Of a DNA stretch of 11,972 nucleotides, positions 1 to 11,972 are shown in pieces. The first letter of the stretch is position 1. Each line of letters starts with the position of its first letter. The stretch is from positions 1-11,972 of the IMG/VR virus record IMGVR_UViG_3300045988_047384; one strand, written 5' to 3'. The translations under genes and the position numbers were made by a program. This DNA is from a virus. The notes below the pieces were generated by a model. That model searched no databases, had not been told where the DNA came from, and saw nothing but the letters and a program-made list of their open reading frames with translations.

Positions 1-48
1 CGAGATTGTTGACTGTGACTGGAGTTCAGACGTGTGCTCTTCCGATCT
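1..48. other. Illumina TruSeq index adapter (reverse complement); technical contamination, not phage DNA
   Basis: Bases 1-48 are the exact reverse complement of 11925-11972. They read as AGATCGGAAGAGCACACGTCTGAACTCCAGTCAC + AGTCAA(CA) + ATCTCG, the TruSeq index-13 adapter. Confidence 0.97.
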
Positions 49-68
49 AAAGGTACACAAGGCACCCA

Positions 69-188
69 TTTTTAACATTTCCCAACACACTTTTAACACT
101 CTCTAACACACTTTGGCACACTTTTTGCTGTGTGCCGCAATTACGATTATTTAACACAATTAACACACCGTTAATACTGTTAAACTTT
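69..188. repeat. Array of TTAAC(A/C)-type motifs spaced about 10 bp apart, plus a hairpin, inside the ITR (mirrored at 11785-11904)
   Basis: AACAT/AACAC cores lie at 74, 84, 95 and 105, with GCACAC at 116. TTAACAC lies at 151 and 161, TTAATAC at 171 and TTAAAC at 180. Spacing is 9-11 bp. A hairpin GGCACAC-N8-GTGTGCC lies at 115-136. Confidence 0.6.
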
Positions 189-198
189 CATAAAAATA

Positions 199-243
199 AT
201 GTTTCACGTGGAACGGTGGTAACGGGGTGTTTCACGTGAAACA
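199..243. promoter_or_regulatory. Two copies of a CACGTG-centred palindromic operator-like site (mirrored at 11730-11774)
   Basis: GTTTCACGTGGAAC lies at 201-214. The perfect 14-bp palindrome GTTTCACGTGAAAC lies at 229-242 and extends to GTGTTTCACGTGAAACA at 227-243. The two copies are 28 bp apart. Confidence 0.5.
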
Positions 244-293
244 AGTGTTAACAACAGTTAATTTATTTCTTTAAGACTTTTTAACAAAAATAA

Positions 294-325
294 TTTGGTG
301 GTTTCGCAAAAACGTTGTACCTTTG
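294..325 (+). promoter_or_regulatory. Bacteroidota-type promoter inside the left ITR, driving the + arm
   Basis: TTTG (294-297), a 20-nt spacer, then TACCTTTG (318-325). This matches TTTG-N19-21-TAnnTTTG. The first + strand ATG is at 375. Confidence 0.55.
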
Positions 326-374
326 CATCAGAGTTAAGAAACATATAAGTTTAACAAATTAAATTAGGTAAATT

Positions 375-1052: not shown

Positions 1053-1715
1053 ATGGCAAAAAAGAATCCAATAGGGTTTAGTAAAAGAACTTTTTCATTT
1101 ACGGGAAAAATTCACGTAAAAAGCGAGATTTTAACCGCTTTGGAATCAGACCCCGTTTTGCGTAAAGAGATTGCCCGAACTTTTCAACAGGCAAACCGGC
1201 GCATACAAAATGTTGAAGATTCGGGTATCGTTTCGCCTGCAGTTGTTGCCCTTAACAAAGGTGACGTGAAAGGGTTTGCAAAGTTTTCAATGAAACACGA
1301 TTGGAACGATTTAAAAATCGAATATGCCAAAGCGGTGGCGTTTTTGCAACAACCTACATCAAGTGCAACGGGTGCGAAAGAATATGCGCAACACCTAAAG
1401 AGCACGTACAAACTAAACGATGATGAATTTAGTTTGATGCAAAATAAATTAATGGGTAAGATTGCGAGTGTTTCCGATGAAAAGTTTTTGGAGCAATATT
1501 TAATGCAATACAAAGACTTTACGGGCGAACTTGAACAAGAAAGTAAAGACGTTTCAGACCAAATCGAAGACGATGCGATAAAAATAGCAGATTCGTTGCA
1601 AGATGACTTGAACGAACAGGCAGAAGCTATCGAAGAAGAGCATGAACGAATGAGTGGTTTATTAGATGATACACTTACAAAGATTCTAAAAAGTTTCAAA
1701 AAATTCGGTTTATAA
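1053..1715 (+). CDS. Candidate terminal protein (220 aa)
   Basis: It lies immediately upstream of the protein-primed polymerase, and its stop overlaps the polymerase start (TAATG at 1713-1717), as with phi29 gp3-gp2. The N-terminus is basic and the C-terminal part is helical and acidic. Assignment rests on synteny and composition only. Confidence 0.55.
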   Translation: MAKKNPIGFSKRTFSFTGKIHVKSEILTALESDPVLRKEIARTFQQANRRIQNVEDSGIVSPAVVALNKGDVKGFAKFSMKHDWNDLKIEYAKAVAFLQQPTSSATGAKEYAQHLKSTYKLNDDEFSLMQNKLMGKIASVSDEKFLEQYLMQYKDFTGELEQESKDVSDQIEDDAIKIADSLQDDLNEQAEAIEEEHERMSGLLDDTLTKILKSFKKFGL

Positions 1716-3925
1716 TGAAAAAGATACCCTTTGAACTTCACACCGAAATTTACACGCCTAAAGATATTGCAAAGGTTTTATCTTTGGCGGTGAATGAAAA
1801 GAACTTCACAGGAAACAATAAGGGCGAAAAGTTATTAAATGTGCCTGTTTCATTTGATATTGAAACTACTTCATTTTATCGTGATGAAGACGGGGAAACA
1901 TATAGTTATGACCGTTACATAAAATTAGGTGGTAAAGATACCAAAATGGAAAAATGTAGTTTAATGTATGTTTGGCAATTTGGAATAAACGGTTTTTGCA
2001 TTATTGGTAGAACGTGGGAAGAATTTTTGCAAATGTTAGATGATATCGTGGAAATAATGAATTTGAACCAAAAAAGGCGCATTATTATATACGTTCACAA
2101 TTTGGCTTATGAATTCCAATTTTTCAGAGAGTTATTGCAATGGGCAAAGGTTTTTTCAATAGACCTTAGAAAACCTATTTACGGAATCACAGAAAACGGA
2201 ATAGAGTTCAGATGTAGTTATTTGCTTTCGGGTTATTCACTTGCAAAACTCGGTGAACAATTACGCAAATATAAATGTGAAAAGTTGGTTGGTGATTTAG
2301 ATTACAGCCTGTTACGGCACAGCAAAACCCCGTTAACGCAAAAAGAAATGGGTTATTGTTTGAACGATATTAAAGTAGTTATGTGCTATATACAGGAATT
2401 AATCGAACAATACAAAAACATTACCCATTTGCCGATAACAAAGACAGGCTTTGTGCGCAAATATTGCCGTTCTGTGTGTTTCAAGACAACAGACCCAGAA
2501 ACAGGTAAAACGGTACAGAATTTTAAGTATTTGGATAAAATCCATAACTTAAATATAACAGGTATAGAAGAGTTTGAAATGCTACAAAGGGCTTTTTCGG
2601 GCGGTTTCACACACGCAAATGCAAAATATACGGATGAGGTAATAGAAAACGTAGATAGTTACGATTTTACTAGTAGCTACCCGTATGTGATGGTAAGCGA
2701 AAAATTTCCTATGAGTACAGGTGTATTTGTTCCTGTTAAGTCTATGAAACAATTTGAGTTTATGACCTCAAAATATTGCTGTGTCTTTGACGTGGAATTT
2801 ACCAACATCTTTGCAAATTCGGATAATGAAAACCCAATATCTGTTAGTAAGTGTTTCGTAAAAGAAAATGTTTCAGAAAATAACGGTCGTTTGGTTTGTG
2901 CTAGTAAAATCTGTATGACTATCACGGAAATAGATTACAAAGTGTTTTCACAGTTCTATATGTGGGAATCTGTGAGAATAGGCAAAATGATCTGTTACCG
3001 AAAAGAATATTTGCCCACCGAGTTTATAAAATCTATTTTGCACCTGTATGAAATGAAAACAAAACTAAAAGGTGTAAAGGGCAAGGAAGTAGAGTATTTA
3101 AATAGCAAGGAAATGCTGAATAGCTGCTACGGTATGAGTGTAACAAACCCTTTGCGGGATGAAATTGTATGTGATGGTAAAACGTGGGACGTTGAACACT
3201 TGACAGGCGGAAAACGCTTAGAGGTGCTGAACAGATACAATGACAGCAGAAACCGTTTTCTTTTCTATCCGTGGGGAATCTATGTAACAGCCTATGCACG
3301 TAGGAATCTGTTTACAGGTATAGCGGAATGCGGTGACGATTACATATATAGCGACACAGACAGCGTAAAAATAAAAAATGGTGAAAACCATAAAGAGTAT
3401 TTCAAAGCCTATAACGATTTGGCACAGCAAAAATTGCGGGCGGCCTGTAAGTTTCACAAAATACCCTTTGAAAAGGTTGAACCTGTAACGATAAAGGGAA
3501 TCGCAAAACCGTTGGGGGTTTGGGATTATGAGGGACGTTACAACCGTTTCAAAACTTTAGGTGCAAAACGTTATATGGTGGAAGAAGAAAACGTCCTAAC
3601 AGTAAACGGCAAAGATTACAATTATTCCATGACCGTTTCGGGCGTTAACAAAAAATCAGCTATCCCTTATATGTTAAAAACCTTTGGAGAAAGTGGAATC
3701 TTTGATGCGTTCACAAATTATCTGGATATTCCACCTAGTGCAACAGGTAAGAATATTCATACATATATTGATTACGAACAAACGGGAACAATAAAAGACT
3801 ATATGGGCAACGTTTCAAGTTACGACACTACAACGGGGGTGCACTTAGAACCAACGGGGTACACTTTAAGTCTTTCAGTTCTTTATATAAATTATTTAAT
3901 GGGAATCAGATTAAAGAAAGAATAA
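1715..3925 (+). CDS. Family-B DNA polymerase, protein-primed type (736 aa)
   Basis: Readable motifs:
- ExoI: SFDIETTS
- ExoII: YVHNLAYEF
- ExoIII: YCLNDIKVV
- motif A: DSYDFTSSYPYVM
- motif B: KEMLNSCYGMS
- motif C: YSDTDSV (nt 3347-3367)
- KxY: GAKRY. Confidence 0.97.
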   Translation: MKKIPFELHTEIYTPKDIAKVLSLAVNEKNFTGNNKGEKLLNVPVSFDIETTSFYRDEDGETYSYDRYIKLGGKDTKMEKCSLMYVWQFGINGFCIIGRTWEEFLQMLDDIVEIMNLNQKRRIIIYVHNLAYEFQFFRELLQWAKVFSIDLRKPIYGITENGIEFRCSYLLSGYSLAKLGEQLRKYKCEKLVGDLDYSLLRHSKTPLTQKEMGYCLNDIKVVMCYIQELIEQYKNITHLPITKTGFVRKYCRSVCFKTTDPETGKTVQNFKYLDKIHNLNITGIEEFEMLQRAFSGGFTHANAKYTDEVIENVDSYDFTSSYPYVMVSEKFPMSTGVFVPVKSMKQFEFMTSKYCCVFDVEFTNIFANSDNENPISVSKCFVKENVSENNGRLVCASKICMTITEIDYKVFSQFYMWESVRIGKMICYRKEYLPTEFIKSILHLYEMKTKLKGVKGKEVEYLNSKEMLNSCYGMSVTNPLRDEIVCDGKTWDVEHLTGGKRLEVLNRYNDSRNRFLFYPWGIYVTAYARRNLFTGIAECGDDYIYSDTDSVKIKNGENHKEYFKAYNDLAQQKLRAACKFHKIPFEKVEPVTIKGIAKPLGVWDYEGRYNRFKTLGAKRYMVEEENVLTVNGKDYNYSMTVSGVNKKSAIPYMLKTFGESGIFDAFTNYLDIPPSATGKNIHTYIDYEQTGTIKDYMGNVSSYDTTTGVHLEPTGYTLSLSVLYINYLMGIRLKKE

Positions 3926-3926
3926 T

Positions 3927-5063
3927 ATGAAACAGAAGAAAGAAAAGGTAGAAACACCGAAATTCTACACGTTGAATCGAATTTTATCAAAGAATGCAGA
4001 TTACAATGTAATTTTCGGTGAACGTTCCAACGGTAAGACCTATGCAACGTTACTGTATGGAATCAAAGAATATTTGCGCACAGGAAAACAAATGGCTTAT
4101 ATTCGTAGATGGCGAGAGGATTTAAGGGGCAAACGTGCCGAAAGTTTGTTTGCAAACCACGTTTCAAACGGTGTTGTAGAAGAACTTACAAACGGCAAAT
4201 TTAACGAAGTGTTTTACGTTTCGGGCAAATGGTTTCTTTCAAGCTATGATCCCGAAACAAAGAAACGTGTACCCGATAACGTGCCGTTCTGTTTCGGTTT
4301 CTGTCTGTCAGAACAGGAGCACGAAAAAAGTAGTAGTTACCCGAATATAACTACTATAGTTTTCGATGAGTTTTTGACAAGACGTTATTATTTGCCCGAT
4401 GAGTTCATGTTGTATATGAACCTGTTGAGTACTATTATCAGACAGCGAAACGATGTTAAAGTGTTTATGCTGGGAAACACCGTGAATCAGTTTTGCCCGT
4501 ATTTTACAGAAATGGGGCTGAAACAGGTGCGGGTGATGGAACAGGGCACAATAGATATTTATAAATTCGGTGAACACGGTGCAACCGTGGCTGTAGAATA
4601 TTGCAGTACTATTGTTAAGCAGAAAGCGAGTAACAAATATTTCTGTTTCGATAATCAAAACCTGCAGATGATTACGGGTGGTAAGTGGGAACTTGCTGTT
4701 TATCCTCATCTACCTGTGAAATATACCCCGAAAGATGTGCTTTTCGTTTTCTATATACAGTTTAACGAAATGACATTACAGGGTAATATAATACAGGTGG
4801 AATCCTCAGACGGTGTTAATAACTTTATGTATATACATAACAAAACAACACCGATTAAGGACATGGAAAACAGTTTGATTTATTCCCTTTGTATGAACGG
4901 AAAACCAAACTACAGGCGAAAGTTATTATCTACAGCTAGTTACGTGGAATCTCAGATAACAAAGTATTTCGCCACCGATAAGGTATTTTATCAGAATAAC
5001 GAAATCGGTGAAATTGTGCGTAACTACTTAATGGCTAGTAGCAGAAGTAACATTATAACTTAA
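3927..5063 (+). CDS. DNA packaging (encapsidation) ATPase, phi29 gp16-like (378 aa)
   Basis: Walker A is GERSNGKTY (nt 4017-4043) and Walker B is TIVFDEF. The surrounding pattern (...AYIRRWRED..., SYPNITTIVFDEFLTR, FMLGNTVNQFCPYF) runs in parallel with phi29 gp16. Confidence 0.9.
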   Translation: MKQKKEKVETPKFYTLNRILSKNADYNVIFGERSNGKTYATLLYGIKEYLRTGKQMAYIRRWREDLRGKRAESLFANHVSNGVVEELTNGKFNEVFYVSGKWFLSSYDPETKKRVPDNVPFCFGFCLSEQEHEKSSSYPNITTIVFDEFLTRRYYLPDEFMLYMNLLSTIIRQRNDVKVFMLGNTVNQFCPYFTEMGLKQVRVMEQGTIDIYKFGEHGATVAVEYCSTIVKQKASNKYFCFDNQNLQMITGGKWELAVYPHLPVKYTPKDVLFVFYIQFNEMTLQGNIIQVESSDGVNNFMYIHNKTTPIKDMENSLIYSLCMNGKPNYRRKLLSTASYVESQITKYFATDKVFYQNNEIGEIVRNYLMASSRSNIIT

Positions 5064-5071
5064 TATCTGTT

Positions 5072-5117
5072 AAAACAGGGAAAAAAGTGTTTAACGTGAA
5101 ACATTTTCCCTGTTTTT
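5072..5117 (+). terminator. Intrinsic terminator after the replication/packaging operon, with an operator-like site in its loop
   Basis: A perfect 13-bp stem, AAAACAGGGAAAA (5072-5084) pairing with TTTTCCCTGTTTT (5104-5116), merges into a T-run. The 19-nt loop contains GTGTTTAACGTGAAACA (5087-5103). Confidence 0.65.
5087..5103. promoter_or_regulatory. Internal copy of the ITR palindromic operator-like motif
   Basis: GTGTTTAACGTGAAACA matches the ITR sequence GTGTTTCACGTGAAACA (227-243) at 16 of 17 positions. It lies 16 nt upstream of the -33 element of the internal promoter. Confidence 0.5.
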
Positions 5118-5118
5118 A

Positions 5119-5177
5119 TTTGGTTGTTTCAGATATTTTGTTTATCTTTGCACCATTAAATAACAAAGTTAAATTTG
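5119..5177 (+). promoter_or_regulatory. Internal Bacteroidota-type promoter or promoters for the structural-gene operon
   Basis: TTTG (5119-5122), 20 nt, then TATCTTTG (5143-5150). A second overlapping match is TTTG (5147-5150), 19 nt, then TAAATTTG (5170-5177), ending 5 nt before the ATG at 5183. Confidence 0.55.
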
Positions 5178-5182
5178 GCTAT

Positions 5183-5377
5183 ATGGACGTAAACGCAATA
5201 GTATCGTTAATTAGTAATGTTGGTTTTCCTGTAGCTGTCTGTATCGCCCTTTTCTTTTATATGGAAAAGCAAAACGAAAGACATCAGAATGAAACCGACA
5301 AGTTAAATGAAACAATACAGAGTAACACGAAAGTGTTAACTGAACTTTGTACGTTAATTAAAACACTTGTAAAGTAA
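5183..5377 (+). CDS. Small single-pass membrane protein (64 aa), YvrJ-like; holin/lysis candidate
   Basis: I used the internal ATG at 5183, because the track's GTG start at 5087 lies inside the terminator and promoter. The N-terminus MDVNAIVSLISNVGFPVAVCIALFFYMEK has one hydrophobic helix and the N-x-GFP-x-x-V signature I recall for the YvrJ family. The C-terminus is charged and helical. Its stop overlaps the portal start (TAATG). Confidence 0.6.
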   Translation: MDVNAIVSLISNVGFPVAVCIALFFYMEKQNERHQNETDKLNETIQSNTKVLTELCTLIKTLVK

Positions 5378-6474
5378 TGAAAAAAGATAATCTTTATAAC
5401 TTGTATCAAACACAGGTAAAAGACAAAGATACAGCCTTAGATACGTTCTTTCAGCGAGTTCTTTGTATGACATCAAAGATGTTTGAGTACACAGGGTTAC
5501 CCGATTCGATTCCACAGGTAGAACTTGAAAAGATTCTGCAGACATCGGGTAACGTTGGTATCGCAGAAGTAAACGGGGAACTGTATGCGTTACAGGGTAC
5601 ACGGGGCGGAGAATGTGATGCGTATTATCACGGCAAAGATTACGTTGTTGCAAACCCGTGGTTAAATTTGAACAAAACGTTTAAAATTGATTCCGATATT
5701 GTCGTTATCAACAACACACCGTTTGCAGATTCACTTTTGCCGATAATCGGCAAATATGGCGTACTTTACACCGATGCGGCAATAACGCTTAATTTGGCTA
5801 GCATTTTAACACGTATCACTATGTTGATTTCTGCTAGTGACGATAAGACCAAACAAAGCGCAGAATCTTTTTTGCAGAAGATTTTAAACGGTGATTTCTC
5901 AGTAATCGGGGAAAATGCCTTTTTCAAAGGTGTTAACTTACAAACACCCCAGACACAGGGAAACCAGCAAATCGGGCAATTAATTGAACTTTTGCAGTAC
6001 TATAAAGCTTCAATGTTCAACGATTTAGGTTTGAATGCAAACTATAATATGAAACGTGAACGTTTGAACACGCAAGAAGTTTCAATGAATATAGACGCTT
6101 TAATGCCGTTCGTTGATTCAATGTTAACAGAACGTGTTGAGGGTGTAAAACGTGTTAACGAAATGTTTGGCACAGATATTACGGTAACGTTGGGGTCTAG
6201 TTGGAAGATTGAGCACGAAAATTATTTGTCGTTACTCAAAGCAACAGAAGACGGGCACGACCACACCGATACAGAAGACGTTGACACTGTAACCGAAAAC
6301 GAAAATGAAGAAACAGAAGAAACGCAAGAAACAGAAGAAACGGAAACAGAAACAGAAGAAACGCAAGAAACAGAAGAAACGGAAACAGAAACAGAAGAAA
6401 CAGAAGAAACAGAAGAAACAGAAGAAACACAAGAAACAGAAACAGAAGAAAAAGAAAACAAAGATGAAAATTAA
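5377..6474 (+). CDS. Portal (connector / upper collar) protein, phi29 gp10-like (365 aa), with a repeat-encoded acidic tail
   Basis: F-E-Y-T-G-L-P...LEKIL...G-N-V-G parallels the phi29 gp10 N-terminus (FEWENLP...LEKSI...GYVGF). NMKRERLNTQEVSMN parallels NLEKKERMVTDEVSSN. The last ~65 residues are almost entirely E/T/Q/N. Confidence 0.82.
   Translation: MKKDNLYNLYQTQVKDKDTALDTFFQRVLCMTSKMFEYTGLPDSIPQVELEKILQTSGNVGIAEVNGELYALQGTRGGECDAYYHGKDYVVANPWLNLNKTFKIDSDIVVINNTPFADSLLPIIGKYGVLYTDAAITLNLASILTRITMLISASDDKTKQSAESFLQKILNGDFSVIGENAFFKGVNLQTPQTQGNQQIGQLIELLQYYKASMFNDLGLNANYNMKRERLNTQEVSMNIDALMPFVDSMLTERVEGVKRVNEMFGTDITVTLGSSWKIEHENYLSLLKATEDGHDHTDTEDVDTVTENENEETEETQETEETETETEETQETEETETETEETEETEETEETQETETEEKENKDEN
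6307..6453 (+). repeat. Purine-rich tandem repeat: 39-bp unit x2, then 9-bp GAAGAAACA-type units
   Basis: 6316-6354 and 6355-6393 are identical 39-mers (GAAGAAACGCAAGAAACAGAAGAAACGGAAACAGAAACA). They are followed by GAAGAAACA x4 and degenerate copies. The region encodes (E/T/Q)n in the portal frame. Confidence 0.9.
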
Positions 6475-7033
6475 CGAACTTTTCACGGGTGAAAATGGTT
6501 TGTTTGAAAAAATCTTCGCACCCATGTTTCCTGTTTTGTACAAATCAATATTCGGTGAAGATGACCCGAAAATAATTGATATTGATTTACGTTTCAAATA
6601 TGGAAACAGAAATCTAGTTGATGCAGTCACAAACGAAACTGCAACCGATATTGTTAAAAGCATTATCACGGTGAAGTTTGATGAATGGCAAAAACAGATT
6701 CAAGTGTTTAATAAAGAATATGACGTGTTAAACCCTGTAACATCAAAGAAGACGGAAACAACAAATAACACCGTTGACGAAACAGGCAATAATAACACGG
6801 TAGATTCAAGTGTAACTTTTAATGATGGAGATTTCGGAAATGACACAAAGCAGCAGCGAGATTCCACAGGGAACAGACAAGAAACTGGTACGAAAACAAC
6901 TGTTGAAAACAGTGTTCCGTCTTTCGTTCCTACTAGTGAAATTATTCAAAAAGAAATGAGTTTGCGCAAAACTAATTTCAAAACGCAAGTTATTGCAGAA
7001 CTTGCAAACGAGTTAACAGTAGATATTTATTAA
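6464..7033 (+). CDS. Virion protein (189 aa); possible lower collar / head-tail adaptor (gp11-like) or scaffold
   Basis: I used the ATG at 6464 (MKINELF...), which overlaps the portal stop by 11 nt. It lies between portal and capsid genes. It has a central T/N/S/G-rich low-complexity segment and a conserved-looking C-terminus (IIQKEMSLRKTNF...ELTVDIY). The functional call is tentative. Confidence 0.45.
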   Translation: MKINELFTGENGLFEKIFAPMFPVLYKSIFGEDDPKIIDIDLRFKYGNRNLVDAVTNETATDIVKSIITVKFDEWQKQIQVFNKEYDVLNPVTSKKTETTNNTVDETGNNNTVDSSVTFNDGDFGNDTKQQRDSTGNRQETGTKTTVENSVPSFVPTSEIIQKEMSLRKTNFKTQVIAELANELTVDIY

Positions 7034-7051: not shown

Positions 7052-8236
7052 ATGGAAGTAAAACAGATTTATACTTTAGTAAACACAGTATCTGGTGAAG
7101 TTTTGGGTAAAACCGATATTGTCAAAGAAGATTTAACGGGTATCGTTGATTTGGGCAATGAGATTTTTAATCAAAATGCCGTTGACAATTACGTTAAATC
7201 GCTTGTAAACCATATCGGCAAAGTTGTTTTCGTAAACCGCCCTTACAGTGGTAAAGTTCCTAGCGTTTTGATGGATGCGTGGGAATTTGGTTCAGTTTTG
7301 GAAAAGATTTCAGCTGACGTTCCAAATGCTGAAGAGAATGACACGTGGAATCTTACAGACGGTAAAGAGTACAAACAGGACGTGTTCCACAAACCAACGG
7401 TTTCTGCTAAGTTCTTCAACTCTAAGGTAACTTTTGAAGTTCCCGTATCTATCACAGAAAGACAGGTAAAGGAATCTTTCAGCAGTGCAGAACAGTTGAA
7501 CGGTTTCATGTCAATGATTTATTCAGCCGTTGAAAAGTCAATGACTATCAAAACCGATGCACTTGTTATGCGTACTATTAACAATATGATTGCGGAAACT
7601 TTGGATGCAGACAAAGCCGCTTTCGGTTTTGTAACGTCAACACACGAAACAGTAGATTATTCTACTGCATCAACTGTTCGTTGTGTAAACTTGTTGCACC
7701 TTTACAACGAGAAGACGGGGGCAAAGTTGGCGGCAAACGTTGCCGTAACAACACCCGACTTTATCCGTTTTGCCGCTTACATTATGGGTTTGTATGCTGA
7801 CCGTTTGCAGACCATTTCGACTTTGTTCAACGTTGGAGGAAAAGAACGTTTCACACCGAAAGACGTGTTGCATACCGTTTTGTTGAGTGACTTTGCAGCC
7901 GCTGCAAAAACTTACCTGTATGCCGATACGTTCCATAATGAAAACGTGTTGTTGCCACAGGCTGAAACCGTTGCAAGTTGGCAAGCAACGGGCACAGATT
8001 ACGCTTTCGCCAACGTTTCAAAGGTTGACGTTAAGAGTGCAAGCGGTGCAACAGTTTCTATCGGGGGCGTGTTGGGTGTGATGTTTGACCGTGACGCTTT
8101 GGGCGTAACCAATTTGGATAAGCGAGTGACAACCAATTACAACGCCAAAGCAGAATTTTTCAACAATTATTTCAAATTCGATGCAGGCTACTTCAACGAC
8201 ACAAACGAAAACTTCGTTGTATTCTTTGTTGCCTAG
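7052..8236 (+). CDS. Major capsid protein, phi29 gp8-like (394 aa)
   Basis: NAVDNYVKSLVNHIGKVVFVNRP parallels phi29 gp8 NDFITSLVDRIGLVVIRQ. ...FSSAEQLNGFMSMIYSAVEKSMTIKTDALVMRTINN parallels ...[36 protein letters not shown]. A strong terminator follows, which suits a highly expressed gene. Confidence 0.82.
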   Translation: MEVKQIYTLVNTVSGEVLGKTDIVKEDLTGIVDLGNEIFNQNAVDNYVKSLVNHIGKVVFVNRPYSGKVPSVLMDAWEFGSVLEKISADVPNAEENDTWNLTDGKEYKQDVFHKPTVSAKFFNSKVTFEVPVSITERQVKESFSSAEQLNGFMSMIYSAVEKSMTIKTDALVMRTINNMIAETLDADKAAFGFVTSTHETVDYSTASTVRCVNLLHLYNEKTGAKLAANVAVTTPDFIRFAAYIMGLYADRLQTISTLFNVGGKERFTPKDVLHTVLLSDFAAAAKTYLYADTFHNENVLLPQAETVASWQATGTDYAFANVSKVDVKSASGATVSIGGVLGVMFDRDALGVTNLDKRVTTNYNAKAEFFNNYFKFDAGYFNDTNENFVVFFVA

Positions 8237-8755: not shown

Positions 8756-10318
8756 ATGAAAGTAACTTATAACATATCAGATCAAACAACCGTTATCGGG
8801 AACAAACCCGAAACGATTGAAAAGGGTGAGACTTTAAGTTTGAACTTACAGGCAAACACTGGATATAAGTTTGACCCTGCGCCGTTGGTTGCTATCAGAA
8901 CATCAAGTTTTCAGTATATCAATACAAACTTTGTTTTGGATTCCACAGGGAAAAAAGCAACGATTTCTTATGACATACCATCGAACGCCGCAGCGTGTAC
9001 CGTTAAGGCTTTTACTGTAGAAAGTGCAGACCCCAAACCCGAAACCGTAACAGTTACAAATACGTTATCAAATTGTACTAGTTCGTTAAACGATGGAACG
9101 GTAAACAAAGGGGAAGAGATAACAATAACTTTGACCGCAAACACGGGGTTTTCTTTTTCGGGTGCTGCCCCAACTGTTGACTACGAAACAACGGGCACGC
9201 CGTCAACGGTTTTTAATGTAGCTAGCGACAAATTAACCGCATCGGTTACAATTACACCAAACGACAATTTTACAATTAATGCTGACGCCCACGAAATTAA
9301 AACGTTTGTAAACGTTACATATAATTTGAAAAATTGTGTTTCAAGTTTGACGGGTAAAACTGTAGAAAAGGGCAAAGAAATTACGGTAACGGTGACGGCA
9401 AACGAAAATGCAATATTTGACGGAATAACTCCAAACGTTTACTATCTAGAGCACGGAATTCCGAAAACGGTTAACTTTACGCTAGATACAGAAAAGAAAA
9501 CTGGAAAGCTTACATTTACGCCAAATTTCAACTTCACTTTTAATGCCAACGCAAACATAATTGAACCTGTTGCAAAAAATTACGGTGCAATTAATGTTTA
9601 TAAAGTAAGTTTGGAAAATTTGGATGCTTTCAGTAAGCAACGTTTTTCTAAAGTTGTTGATGAAACAACAGGTGCAACACAAACCGTTAATTTAGGCGTT
9701 TATGTAAACCGAATAAAGCGCATTTTTGCCAACGTTCCAGTAAGTGGTACGGATAACTTGAAATGCGGTAACTACGATACAAAAATTATCGTGGAATCCC
9801 CAAAGACCGATATTTTAACAATAAATTTCGGAAACGTTGCCCTTACAGGGTTAAACGGTAACAATTCCGATTACGATGCAAAGATTTCGGTTTTTATCCC
9901 GTGCCGTGGTTTTGTTCCTGTTGATAGTTCATACATCGGTAAAACGGTTAACTTATCTTTGAAAGTTAACATCGTTACGGGTGATGCCGTGGCGTTCCTA
10001 TCGTGTGCCGGTACAACATTTCAGTTTGAAAGTTTTTCTTTGTCCCGTGATGTTATTTATCGAACAGGGGATAACGATTTAAATCTTATTGGCGGTGACG
10101 AATGGAACGAACAAATTTTATATGGTTTAGAACCTTACTTTTTGATAACGGAAAATAAAACCGTTGACGTTGTGATAAACAACACGCAAAAAGAAGTAAA
10201 GTTGCAAGACGTAACAGGGTTTGCACAGTTTGAAAACGTGGATTTGAACACGGTTAATTTGTTGGTAGATGAGTATAACACCATTATTTCAGAACTTGAA
10301 AACGGTGTTTATCTATAA
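8756..10318 (+). CDS. Tail knob / receptor-binding protein (520 aa): three tandem beta-rich repeat domains plus a gp9-like C-terminal part
   Basis: Repeats are aa 1-96, 97-183 and 184-270 (nt 8756-9565). They share V-T-Y-N-L-x-N-C...V-x-K-G-x-E-I-T-(I/V)-T-(L/V)-T-A-N...P-x-V-x-Y...F-T-(I/F)-N-A. C-terminal segments (ISVFIPCRGFVPVD...LSLKVNIVTGD and ...LLVDEYNTIISELENGVYL) resemble gp9 (MMYPYCVTEITDF... and ...DLQEIRTIFDNGITLW). Confidence 0.55.
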   Translation: MKVTYNISDQTTVIGNKPETIEKGETLSLNLQANTGYKFDPAPLVAIRTSSFQYINTNFVLDSTGKKATISYDIPSNAAACTVKAFTVESADPKPETVTVTNTLSNCTSSLNDGTVNKGEEITITLTANTGFSFSGAAPTVDYETTGTPSTVFNVASDKLTASVTITPNDNFTINADAHEIKTFVNVTYNLKNCVSSLTGKTVEKGKEITVTVTANENAIFDGITPNVYYLEHGIPKTVNFTLDTEKKTGKLTFTPNFNFTFNANANIIEPVAKNYGAINVYKVSLENLDAFSKQRFSKVVDETTGATQTVNLGVYVNRIKRIFANVPVSGTDNLKCGNYDTKIIVESPKTDILTINFGNVALTGLNGNNSDYDAKISVFIPCRGFVPVDSSYIGKTVNLSLKVNIVTGDAVAFLSCAGTTFQFESFSLSRDVIYRTGDNDLNLIGGDEWNEQILYGLEPYFLITENKTVDVVINNTQKEVKLQDVTGFAQFENVDLNTVNLLVDEYNTIISELENGVYL

Positions 10319-10353: not shown

Positions 10354-10599
10354 TTATTTGCTGTAAAATTCGTTCATTAAACCTTTCTTACCAAGGAAAT
10401 CAAAACATCTGTTTTTGATACCCATTTCTACATCTAAACAGTTAGAAAGATATTCAACTACTTTCTGCTGTGCCTGTAGTGTATCGATTACAGAGTTAAG
10501 CAATAAACCGTTATTACCTGTAGTGTTTTCTGCTACAAACTTTAAATTATCAATGGAAACTGAAATAGAATCCTGCAAAACCTTAAAACCTTTTTGCAT
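10354..10599 (-). CDS. Hypothetical protein (81 aa), last gene of the right arm
   Basis: ATG ORF starting 3 nt after the endolysin stop. It is predicted soluble and helical, and I recognise no motif. Confidence 0.55.
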   Translation of the reverse strand: MQKGFKVLQDSISVSIDNLKFVAENTTGNNGLLLNSVIDTLQAQQKVVEYLSNCLDVEMGIKNRCFDFLGKKGLMNEFYSK

Positions 10600-10602
10600 A
10601 AC

Positions 10603-11025
10603 TTATTTCTTTTCTAAGTTCATAATAATCTGTTGACGTGGTTTACCATTTCGTGGTGATACCGAAACGTGATACCAAAAACTTTTAGAGCCTTTGCGGT
10701 GCTCTTTAATAAGTTGATCAAACCCACCTGTTTCTCTCAGAACCTTTCCCAAAGATTCCATATCGGCACAAATTAAATCTGCGGCTAAACCCTTTTGGTG
10801 TTGGCTGTTAGTTACACCACCTACAGCCTTATTTAACACAGGACATCTAAAACCGCTAGAAATAAGAATCGGTTTACCCACCTTTTCACGGATTCCATCT
10901 AGATAATCTGCTAGACGGTTTAAGTTGTCCACTACCTCAAACGTTGGCATATTGTCTATGCTAAGACGTTTTGCGGTTGCTGAATTAATAAACTCAGACA
11001 ATTTAAAATACTTGATCCTTTTCAT
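10603..11025 (-). CDS. Peptidase M15 (M15_3 / DD- or LD-peptidase fold) endolysin (140 aa)
   Basis: The family signature is ...PILISSGFRCPVLNKAVGGVTNSQHQKGLAADL...FWYHVSV. The Zn ligands H-x6-D (SQHQKGLAAD) and a distal H (YHV) are present. There is no signal peptide. Confidence 0.88.
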   Translation of the reverse strand: MKRIKYFKLSEFINSATAKRLSIDNMPTFEVVDNLNRLADYLDGIREKVGKPILISSGFRCPVLNKAVGGVTNSQHQKGLAADLICADMESLGKVLRETGGFDQLIKEHRKGSKSFWYHVSVSPRNGKPRQQIIMNLEKK

Positions 11026-11026
11026 A

Positions 11027-11227
11027 TTACTTTTCTGTTGGTAAAACTACAAACCATTTACGAGTATCTTTGTGAGTTGGAAAACGACCTTTAACTGTAA
11101 TTGAGCAATCGCCCAAAAGGTAGTCTATTTTATTGTTAAAGAACTCGCTTACTTTATCAGAACGTACCATATAAACGGTAACGTTATTAACCTGTTTCAA
11201 AGTGATTTTAAAATAACTATGTTCCAT
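11027..11227 (-). CDS. Hypothetical protein (66 aa from ATG 11227; 80 aa if GTG 11269 is used)
   Basis: ORF MEHSYFKITLKQVNNVTVYMVRSDKV.... I prefer the ATG because the upstream GTG lies inside a G-rich hairpin. Its stop abuts the endolysin start. Confidence 0.5.
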   Translation of the reverse strand: MEHSYFKITLKQVNNVTVYMVRSDKVSEFFNNKIDYLLGDCSITVKGRFPTHKDTRKWFVVLPTEK

Positions 11228-11281
11228 ATTATATGTATTTATGCCCGTGAGTGATACCCCCACCCCCACAGGCTGTTAATA

Positions 11282-11611
11282 TTAACAGATTCTTTCGGCT
11301 GTAAACTCATAACGTACTGTTTCGATGTACTCACCGCTATATATGTTAGTTACAGTTACGAAACCGTAACCAATAGCGTAAATATCTGCAATGTTGCTTT
11401 TATAAGCATACATCGTTTTAGGATAACGTACACCCTGTATAGGGATTCTATTCATATTATAAATGCCTGTTAGCATTTTATTAATATGGTTTGCCACTTC
11501 GTACATATTACCATTTATAACAGTAGATGAAAATGGAATATCTTTGGTGAAACGTGTGCCGTTACAATGTGCGTCACGGTTTGCCTTTACTGTAATATTG
11601 TACTTTGCCAT
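11282..11611 (-). CDS. Hypothetical protein (109 aa), first gene of the right arm
   Basis: ATG at 11611, 36 nt downstream of the right-ITR promoter -7 element. I recognise no motif. Confidence 0.6.
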   Translation of the reverse strand: MAKYNITVKANRDAHCNGTRFTKDIPFSSTVINGNMYEVANHINKMLTGIYNMNRIPIQGVRYPKTMYAYKSNIADIYAIGYGFVTVTNIYSGEYIETVRYEFTAERIC

Positions 11612-11627
11612 AATTTAATTGTTTTAC

Positions 11628-11924
11628 TATGTTTCTTAACTCTGATGCAAAGGTACAACGTTTTTGCGAAACCACCAAATTATTTTTGTTAAAAAGTCTT
11701 AAAGAAATAAATTAACTGTTGTTAACACTTGTTTCACGTGAAACACCCCGTTACCACCGTTCCACGTGAAACATTATTTTTATGAAAGTTTAACAGTATT
11801 AACGGTGTGTTAATTGTGTTAAATAATCGTAATTGCGGCACACAGCAAAAAGTGTGCCAAAGTGTGTTAGAGAGTGTTAAAAGTGTGTTGGGAAATGTTA
11901 AAAATGGGTGCCTTGTGTACCTTT
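11628..11924. repeat. Right inverted terminal repeat (297 bp)
   Basis: Perfect reverse complement of 49-345, ending ...GTACCTTT directly before the adapter. Confidence 0.93.
11648..11679 (-). promoter_or_regulatory. Bacteroidota-type promoter inside the right ITR, driving the - arm
   Basis: Mirror image of 294-325: CAAAGGTA at 11648-11655 (TACCTTTG on the - strand) and CAAA at 11676-11679, with a 20-nt spacer. Confidence 0.55.
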
Positions 11925-11972
11925 AGATCGGAAGAGCACACGTCTGAACTCCAGTCACAGTCAACAATCTCG
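11925..11972. other. Illumina TruSeq index adapter; technical contamination
   Basis: AGATCGGAAGAGCACACGTCTGAACTCCAGTCAC-AGTCAACA-ATCTCG. Confidence 0.97.

Follow-up and report, generated by a model that had tools for sequence, protein, structure and literature searches.

The locus analysed here raises the question of which protein, if any, reads a palindrome that recurs near both ends and near the middle of a small linear phage genome. In the window, i.e. the whole stretch of 11,972 nt that was analysed, five copies had been noticed in the first-pass annotation and taken for a shared operator, either of a phage-encoded dimeric regulator coordinating an early/late switch or of a host factor. 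All five copies are present. Two of them lie in the left ITR, namely parS-L1 at 200–215 (TGTTTCACGTGGAACG, two mismatches to the consensus) and parS-L2 at 228–243 (TGTTTCACGTGAAACA, the perfect 16-bp consensus); one, parS-C, is internal (5088–5103, TGTTTAACGTGAAACA, one mismatch); and two are found in the right ITR, i.e. parS-R2 at 11730–11745 (perfect) and parS-R1 at 11758–11773 (two mismatches). Since the right-ITR copies are ITR duplicates of parS-L2 and parS-L1, respectively, only three of the five sites are independent, and the perfect palindrome, described earlier as having a core of 14 bp, extends over 16 bp (228–243).

The comparison of the whole genome with shuffled sequence, proposed earlier as a check, returned five matches with up to three mismatches versus 0.20 expected, and none of 200 shuffles reached five. 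For the unique 11,579 bp, three sites with up to two mismatches were counted versus 0.018 expected, a number reached in none of 2000 Markov simulations. Outside the ITR sites, the hexamer CACGTG occurs only once in the window, at 7342, and a looser 12-mer search of the window added only two matches, both located in coding sequence and both with two mismatches.

Genome organization and termini

Based on Pfam and PHROGs assignments of its 17 ORFs, the window represents the complete linear genome, ~11.9 kb in length, of a phi29-like podophage. It encodes a protein-primed family-B DNA polymerase (PolB; 1715–3925), a gp16-type packaging ATPase (3927–5063), a holin-like protein (5183–5377), a connector (5377–6474), a phi29-type major capsid protein (MCP; 7052–8236) and a 520-aa tail-like protein (8756–10318). 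The minus strand carries the endolysin (10603–11025), a 140-aa M15 peptidase in which M15 is the sole Pfam domain detected, along with three small ORFs. The closest cultured relatives are the Astrithrvirus phages (~11.5 kb), which have a matching gene order and a PolB identity of ~46%; Megablast of the window against cultured phages gave no match.

The two arms of the window (1–345 and 11628–11972) are 100% complementary to each other. Their outermost 48 nt (1–48, mirrored at 11925–11972), which we take to be TruSeq sequence, correspond to an Illumina index-primer/adapter and not to phage DNA. The adapter reads CGAGAT-TGTTGACT-GTGACTGGAGTTCAGACGTGTGCTCTTCCGATCT and is fused to the genome termini, remnants being likewise present in the related contigs L235 and L241. 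Because these 48 nt at each end inflate the arms to 345 nt, the phage genome proper starts with AAAGGTACAC at position 49, and its ITR measures ~297 bp (49–345 on the left and 11628–11924 on the right). Its terminal ~100 bp (49 to ~150, mirrored on the right) contain iterated TTAACA(C)/CAACAC motifs and, since they are conserved even in sister clades that lack parS, probably represent the protein-primed replication origin. The parS array occupies the variable subterminal part of the ITR, apart from this conserved terminal origin.

The packaging ATPase and the connector are of the phi29 type, yet an Rfam scan of the window for pRNA or any other RNA gave only two sub-threshold chance matches and no prohead/packaging RNA; the pRNA, if there is one, is beyond recognition by the current Rfam model. 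A 9-nt tandem repeat (GAAGAAACA-like, ~12 overlapping copies) at 6291–6482 encodes the C-terminal tail of the connector, which is of low complexity and rich in E, T and K. Furthermore, a 22-nt inverted repeat with 95% complementarity (588–609 and 10584–10605) spans the start codons of a 121-aa ORF on the plus strand and an 81-aa ORF on the minus strand, the products of both starting with MQKGF; the repeat may have arisen as a small duplication, or it may serve both ORFs as an element of translation initiation or regulation.

Promoters and the probable host

The pattern TTTG-N19–21-TAnnTTTG is the housekeeping promoter of Bacteroidota, and the window contains four matches to it versus 0.53 expected, all of them inside the three non-coding regions. 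The promoter geometry deduced earlier (TTTG-N20-TAnnTTTG) proved to be right. The left early promoter (294–325, plus strand, TTTG-N20-TACCTTTG) starts 51 nt downstream of parS-L2, so that the two ITR sites are found 51 and 79 nt from its -33 element, and the right early promoter (11648–11679, minus strand) is the ITR copy of the left one. Two overlapping late promoters (5119–5150 and 5147–5177, together 5119–5177, plus strand; TTTG-N20-TATCTTTG and TTTG-N19-TAAATTTG, respectively) are positioned upstream of the holin-like gene at 5183. A sigma-70-like promoter reading (TTGCAC/TAAATT) was dropped once the Bacteroidota pattern had been matched, and a simple sigma-70 promoter scan was uninformative.

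Shine-Dalgarno sequences, present in every phi29 gene checked, are absent from the genes of the window, and Spo0A boxes (TGTCGAA) number zero in the window versus 1.84 expected. Because the promoters are of the Bacteroidota type and both Shine-Dalgarno sequences and Spo0A boxes are missing, the host is probably a non-sporulating, low-Shine-Dalgarno, Bacteroidota-like bacterium. The small M15 endolysin, in which no further Pfam domain was detected, was counted in favour of the same host type. With such a host, the role of the palindromes must differ from the spore entrapment of phi29, and the combination that characterizes a phi29-type spore-entrapment module, i.e. parS together with Spo0A boxes in a phage of a Bacillota host, was not found here. 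The two closest matches from genome collections are whole-contig members of Melainabacteria/Gastranaerophilales MAG bins; contigs L209, L210 and L214 of the same clade were binned in Gastranaerophilales, Melainabacteria and Vampirovibrio MAGs, and distant relatives in assorted Bacillota MAGs. Bin membership is weak evidence; it conflicts with the Bacteroidota-type promoters, and either the binning or the promoter-based host assignment is wrong. Under either assignment, the pay-off of phi29 spore entrapment is unlikely to apply.

Identity of the palindrome with parS

The centromere parS of chromosomal ParABS systems reportedly has the consensus TGTTNCACGTGAAACA (Lin & Grossman 1998; Livny et al. 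2007). According to the criterion of Livny 2007, as cited in PMC10197239, a parS site is a 16-bp palindrome that matches this consensus with at most two mismatches. The 16-mer with up to two mismatches has served as the parS detector in twelve gut bacteria, Bacteroides included, and gut Bacteroides possess ParABS as well as consensus parS (PMC10197239). The three independent sites of the window have zero, one and two mismatches to TGTTNCACGTGAAACA, which may not be the consensus of the actual host. In the ITR variant TGTTTCACGTGGAAC(A/G), the change falls on position 12 and mirrors the degenerate N of TGTTNCACGTGAAACA.

In all literature matches listed for the exact 16-mer, the topic is ParB/parS or the sequence is used as the parS consensus, and it has been tabulated as parS of Hyphomonas, Caulobacter and Burkholderia chromosome 1, i.e. 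in several phyla. The exact 16-mer was also found in at least 120 viral contigs of IMG/VR with GC contents of 0.27–0.72; many of these are unrelated and many carry several copies, which rules out a private operator. As judged from sequence, what recurs in this genome is the canonical consensus of chromosomal parS, and thus a predicted nucleation site of ParB/Spo0J. This agrees with the host factor that the first-pass annotation had offered as its alternative, canonical parS being bound by the host protein ParB. For annotation purposes, the exact 16-mer may be considered a cheap marker, and such a palindrome in non-coding phage DNA should be taken for parS and not for an orphan operator.

Conservation and distribution among relatives

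Sites with up to two mismatches were counted in 80 close relatives (MCP 89–97% identical) plus the window, i.e. in 81 genomes comprising 953,558 bp. The motif is conserved: 390 of the 393 sites occupy the same three non-coding positions (171 in the left ITR, 143 in the right ITR and 76 in the internal intergenic region), with only three elsewhere, and the earlier claim that the motif is limited to the three promoter-bearing non-coding regions is borne out in the window as well as in the clade. The ITR 16-mers are nearly invariant among the relatives, variation of the 16-mer being almost confined to positions 12 and 16, whereas the spacers between copies are wholly different; the copy number varies from one to five per ITR and the spacing is 26–29 or 35–39 bp. 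It is clear that the phylogenetic footprint lies on the 16-mer itself and that purifying selection acts at the sequence level, independently of the flanks.

The seven cultured Astrithrvirus-like phages, with Salmonella, Enterobacter, Pectobacterium, Shigella, Acinetobacter and Vibrio as hosts, have no site even at three mismatches, and a search at up to two mismatches likewise came up empty in nine IMG/VR relatives of astrithr. Enterobacterales are not known to have chromosomal ParABS, and the phages of these hosts lack sites as predicted for hosts without this system. The Acinetobacter and Vibrio phages likewise lack sites; the hosts of Acinetobacter Phanie and Vibrio K58 g2 are expected to have ParB. 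The comparison between hosts is thus informative only in part, and the presence of ParB in the host does not by itself suffice to maintain selection for parS.

The sister clade with MCPs ~80% identical (e.g. L235, L239 and L247) exhibits neither ITR arrays nor the internal site, some of its members having a single two-mismatch site elsewhere. It keeps the terminal ~100 bp (AAAGGTAYAC...TTTTTAACATTTCCCAACA...), and its subterminal ITR contains other iterated motifs, such as three to four copies of TGTTGAAGCCTGACGTTGCAGA plus GCCACC runs in L247 and other repeats in L235. The complete ITR of L241 carries three copies of GCATAAATATGCGC in place of parS, and the internal site of this contig is the symmetric variant TGTTCCACGTGGAACA, found also in L244, the contig of which has no ITR ends. 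In L129, L211 and L180, the ITR sites are kept and the terminator at the late promoter is plain; L215 has six sites, one of which directly abuts the late promoter without a hairpin. To judge from these comparisons, the subterminal part of the ITR behaves as a variable cassette and, because presence and absence of parS are mosaic across relatives and sister clades, the sites may be regarded as an accessory module that has been repeatedly gained or lost.

Several exact parS sites are also carried by distant phi29-like contigs (PolB 21–37% identical). Some of them are located inside the 693-aa PolB ORF (L086 at 9223 and 9574, L100 at 2627 and 2978, L186 at 3050), a position difficult to square with an operator function at promoters; paired intergenic copies 34 bp apart were seen in such contigs as well. 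Among the cultured phi29-like phages, the number of sites with up to two mismatches is four in phi29, two in Nf, one in AD70P2 and zero in GA-1, CPS1, Andhra and Av-1. Five exact parS sites within 0.8–0.9 kb, adjoining terminase genes, were observed in unrelated tailed-phage contigs with a GC content of ~0.5 (L101 at 2657–3444, where the array lies between TerL and TerS, and L141 at 10535–11462), and none of the ORFs tested in these fragments proved to be a ParB. It may be that parS arrays of the host type are commoner among phages than the literature suggests.

The internal copy as part of a terminator

The internal copy had been placed 16 nt upstream of the -33 element of the late promoter, which was confirmed (TTTG at 5119); in addition, the same copy forms the apex of an intrinsic terminator hairpin (5072–5116, plus strand) situated 3' of the packaging-ATPase gene. 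The hairpin has a folding energy of -21.7 kcal/mol (z = -4.6), with parS-C as its apical stem, and its T-run overlaps the -33 TTTG. The G/C-rich outer stem occurs among the relatives in compensated variants (CAGGG/CCCTG, CGGGGG/CCCCCG, CAGGGG/CCCCTG and TAGGG/CCCTA, as well as ATAGAAAAA/TTTTTCT(C/G)TAT in L241 and L244), and per-sequence folding demonstrated that at least six outer pairs are kept in 78 of 79 genomes. The parS-C core is conserved as sequence: 50 of 76 relatives have the perfect consensus, and where the core does change, which is rare, the change mostly affects one side of the stem and disrupts pairing. A stable G/C stem, a T-run and compensatory changes are thus all found at the internal copy, which is a real intrinsic terminator with an apical stem made from a parS site. 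The ITR copies (200–243) have no flanking complementarity and no T-run.

RNAalifold applied to a MAFFT alignment of the internal region paired only the parS core and revealed no covariation, the indels of the outer stem having been misaligned, and a simple terminator scan missed the hairpin owing to its loop rule of 3–8 nt. Placing parS in the apex of a hairpin is an economical use of a palindrome, given that almost no spare non-coding DNA is available.

Proposed role and alternative explanations

None of the 17 ORFs matched ParB, ParA, an HTH protein or any DNA-binding family in Pfam and PHROGs, and the replicon does not contain a self-contained parA-parB-parS cassette. Because the phage encodes no ParB, the reader of the sites would be the ParB of the host, and the five palindromes are likely to be chromosomal-type parS sites that recruit this protein to both genome ends and to the centre. 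ParB dimers would nucleate at the central site and at the two-copy arrays, which lie ~150–195 bp inward of either protein-capped end; on binding CTP they would close into sliding clamps and spread over the neighbouring DNA. In vitro, ParB-CTP clamps build up only on DNA with blocked ends, and a protein roadblock can serve as the block. On the linear phage genome, spreading would require capped ends, and the cap might be the terminal protein, which is covalently attached, or some other roadblock. Loaded at three points, the 12-kb genome might become one partition complex, to be treated like an origin region by the ParA/SMC of the host.

The presumed pay-off would be that the genome, although unintegrated, is positioned and faithfully passed on during delayed lytic growth, i.e. 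in a carrier state or pseudolysogeny. As a second effect, because the sites lie 16–51 nt upstream of promoters, spreading ParB could damp early and late transcription and link quiescence to the ParB state of the host. Positioning and inheritance are favoured here, possibly together with promoter silencing. Recruitment of host ParB, if true, would bear on the coexistence of gut phages with their hosts, since it would offer a concrete and testable mechanism by which small phages of the virulent type, having neither integrase nor repressor, could be maintained while gut bacteria divide. The genome would also provide a natural linear, protein-capped parS substrate for studies of ParB-CTP clamp loading and retention. 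A bolder extension, which is put forward tentatively, is that of a portable centromere without its own ParB, by which an integrase-less and apparently strictly lytic 12-kb phage would be positioned and inherited in a plasmid-like manner in dividing, non-sporulating gut Bacteroidota. The subterminal ITR might then be a swappable cassette of sites for different host DNA-organising proteins, and piracy of host ParB might recur in small protein-primed phages and perhaps in other tailed phages, and would then not be peculiar to sporulation in Bacillus.

The main functional rival is that the sites are parS with a transcriptional function, nucleation and spreading of ParB serving to silence or time the two early promoters and the late promoter, and segregation not being the point. 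Each site of the clade lies upstream of a promoter at the distances given above, the parS of L215 that abuts the late promoter has no hairpin, and ParB-family clamps can repress nearby promoters, as known for KorB/OB on RK2 and for P1 ParB silencing. The confinement of the sites to promoter regions in the clade fits such a role equally well, a point against the favoured reading. However, in a genome that is ~95% coding, non-coding DNA is almost the sole room for a 16-bp palindrome; phi29 and the distant phi29-like contigs hold sites inside genes, far from promoters; and in L129, L211 and L180, all of which retain the ITR sites, the late promoter is preceded by a plain terminator. A purely transcriptional function is therefore considered unlikely.

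The sites might also act as a ParB decoy, the replicating genomes, with five parS each, titrating ParB and the SMC loaded by it off the host origin and disturbing segregation or division to the benefit of the phage. Arrays of consensus sites on a high-copy genome that has no ParA or ParB of its own to use them would suit this purpose, but the phi29 precedent is one of segregation and not of titration, and the ends-plus-centre layout is of no obvious value to a decoy, which makes this explanation improbable.

Even less credence can be given to a shared operator for a phage-encoded dimeric regulator of an early/late switch, for which the 55-aa ORF and the orphan ORFs of the right arm had been named as candidates. 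It is true that each of the three promoter regions contains the palindrome and that several of the small ORFs lack an assigned function, but no HTH or DNA-binding domain was detected in Pfam or PHROGs searches and no small ORF co-occurs with the motif across the relatives. The 55-aa ORF is conserved (42–54% identity) in the sister clade that has neither ITR nor internal parS; of the 80 close relatives that bear parS, just 8 have the 109-aa ORF; and L129, L211 and L215 bear parS but have neither the 81-aa nor the 80-aa ORF. Moreover, the motif is the pan-bacterial parS, its exact 16-mer being found in unrelated viral contigs and inside coding sequence, and this part of the first-pass annotation is not supported. 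Finally, purely structural palindromes (terminator or cruciform hairpins, or an origin or packaging signal) without a sequence-specific protein partner are hardly tenable: the internal copy truly belongs to a stable hairpin with a well-kept outer stem, but that stem covaries freely while the 16-mer core is held as sequence, the ITR copies have neither outer stem nor T-run, the terminal origin sequence is conserved in clades without the motif, and the palindromes are missing from relatives whose replication and packaging genes are the same.

Comparison with known systems

For the preferred reading, i.e. recruitment of the host ParB, the closest precedent is phi29, whose parS sites are bound by the host Spo0J, leading to spore entrapment (Meijer et al. 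2005, as cited in PMC2731898). A literature search for the use of host ParB by lytic phages revealed no example beyond phi29, and a 2024 review of phi29-like phages mentions neither parS nor Spo0J. Like the window, phi29 and Nf are phi29-like protein-primed podophages that have several chromosomal-type parS sites and no ParB gene. The scan of phi29 returned four sites with the sequence TGTTTCACGTGGAACA, and the G at position 12 of parS-L1 is the same variant of the 16-mer. One of the phi29 sites (17243–17258) directly follows the stop codon of gene 16, which encodes the ATPase, and precedes the bidirectional terminator TD1 by 3 nt; the same order of ATPase, parS and terminator is seen in the window (5061–5116), and this shared context could be either convergence or an old arrangement. 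In contrast to the window, with its tandem arrays in ITRs of ~300 bp and one site in a terminator hairpin, the phi29 sites are single, mostly located in genes and outside ITRs of only 6 bp. The PolB of the window is also distant from the phi29 group (24% identity to that of Nf), and its host is probably of a non-sporulating Bacteroidota type, unlike the sporulating host of phi29.

The centromeres of chromosomal ParABS systems share with the window the same 16-bp palindrome (at up to two mismatches), clustered near replication origins, and differ from it in that the sites of the window are placed on a 12-kb viral genome with neither ParA nor ParB encoded in cis. Centromere sites on phage genomes are known from P1 (parS/ParB) and N15 (sopC), those of N15 being dispersed and near promoters and allowing inheritance without integration. 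P1 and N15, however, encode their own ParA/ParB (SopA/SopB) and have their own site sequences, whereas the phage of the window has neither and uses the consensus of the host chromosome. KorB of plasmid RK2 is a ParB-family CTP clamp and global repressor that recognizes palindromic OB sites across the promoter regions of a small replicon, and it provides the mechanistic picture of the shared operator suggested in the first-pass annotation; but KorB is encoded by the plasmid and the OB sequence differs from chromosomal parS, and the window encodes no such protein.

The motif, as well as the idea of a phage making use of host ParB, is already known from phi29. The tandem arrays in long ITRs, the site within a terminator, the probably non-sporulating host, the mosaic, cassette-like distribution and the breadth across metagenomic phi29-like phages appear to be unreported. 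If host ParB is indeed the reader of these sites, the single precedent of phi29 and Spo0J would be extended beyond sporulation and beyond the Bacillota.
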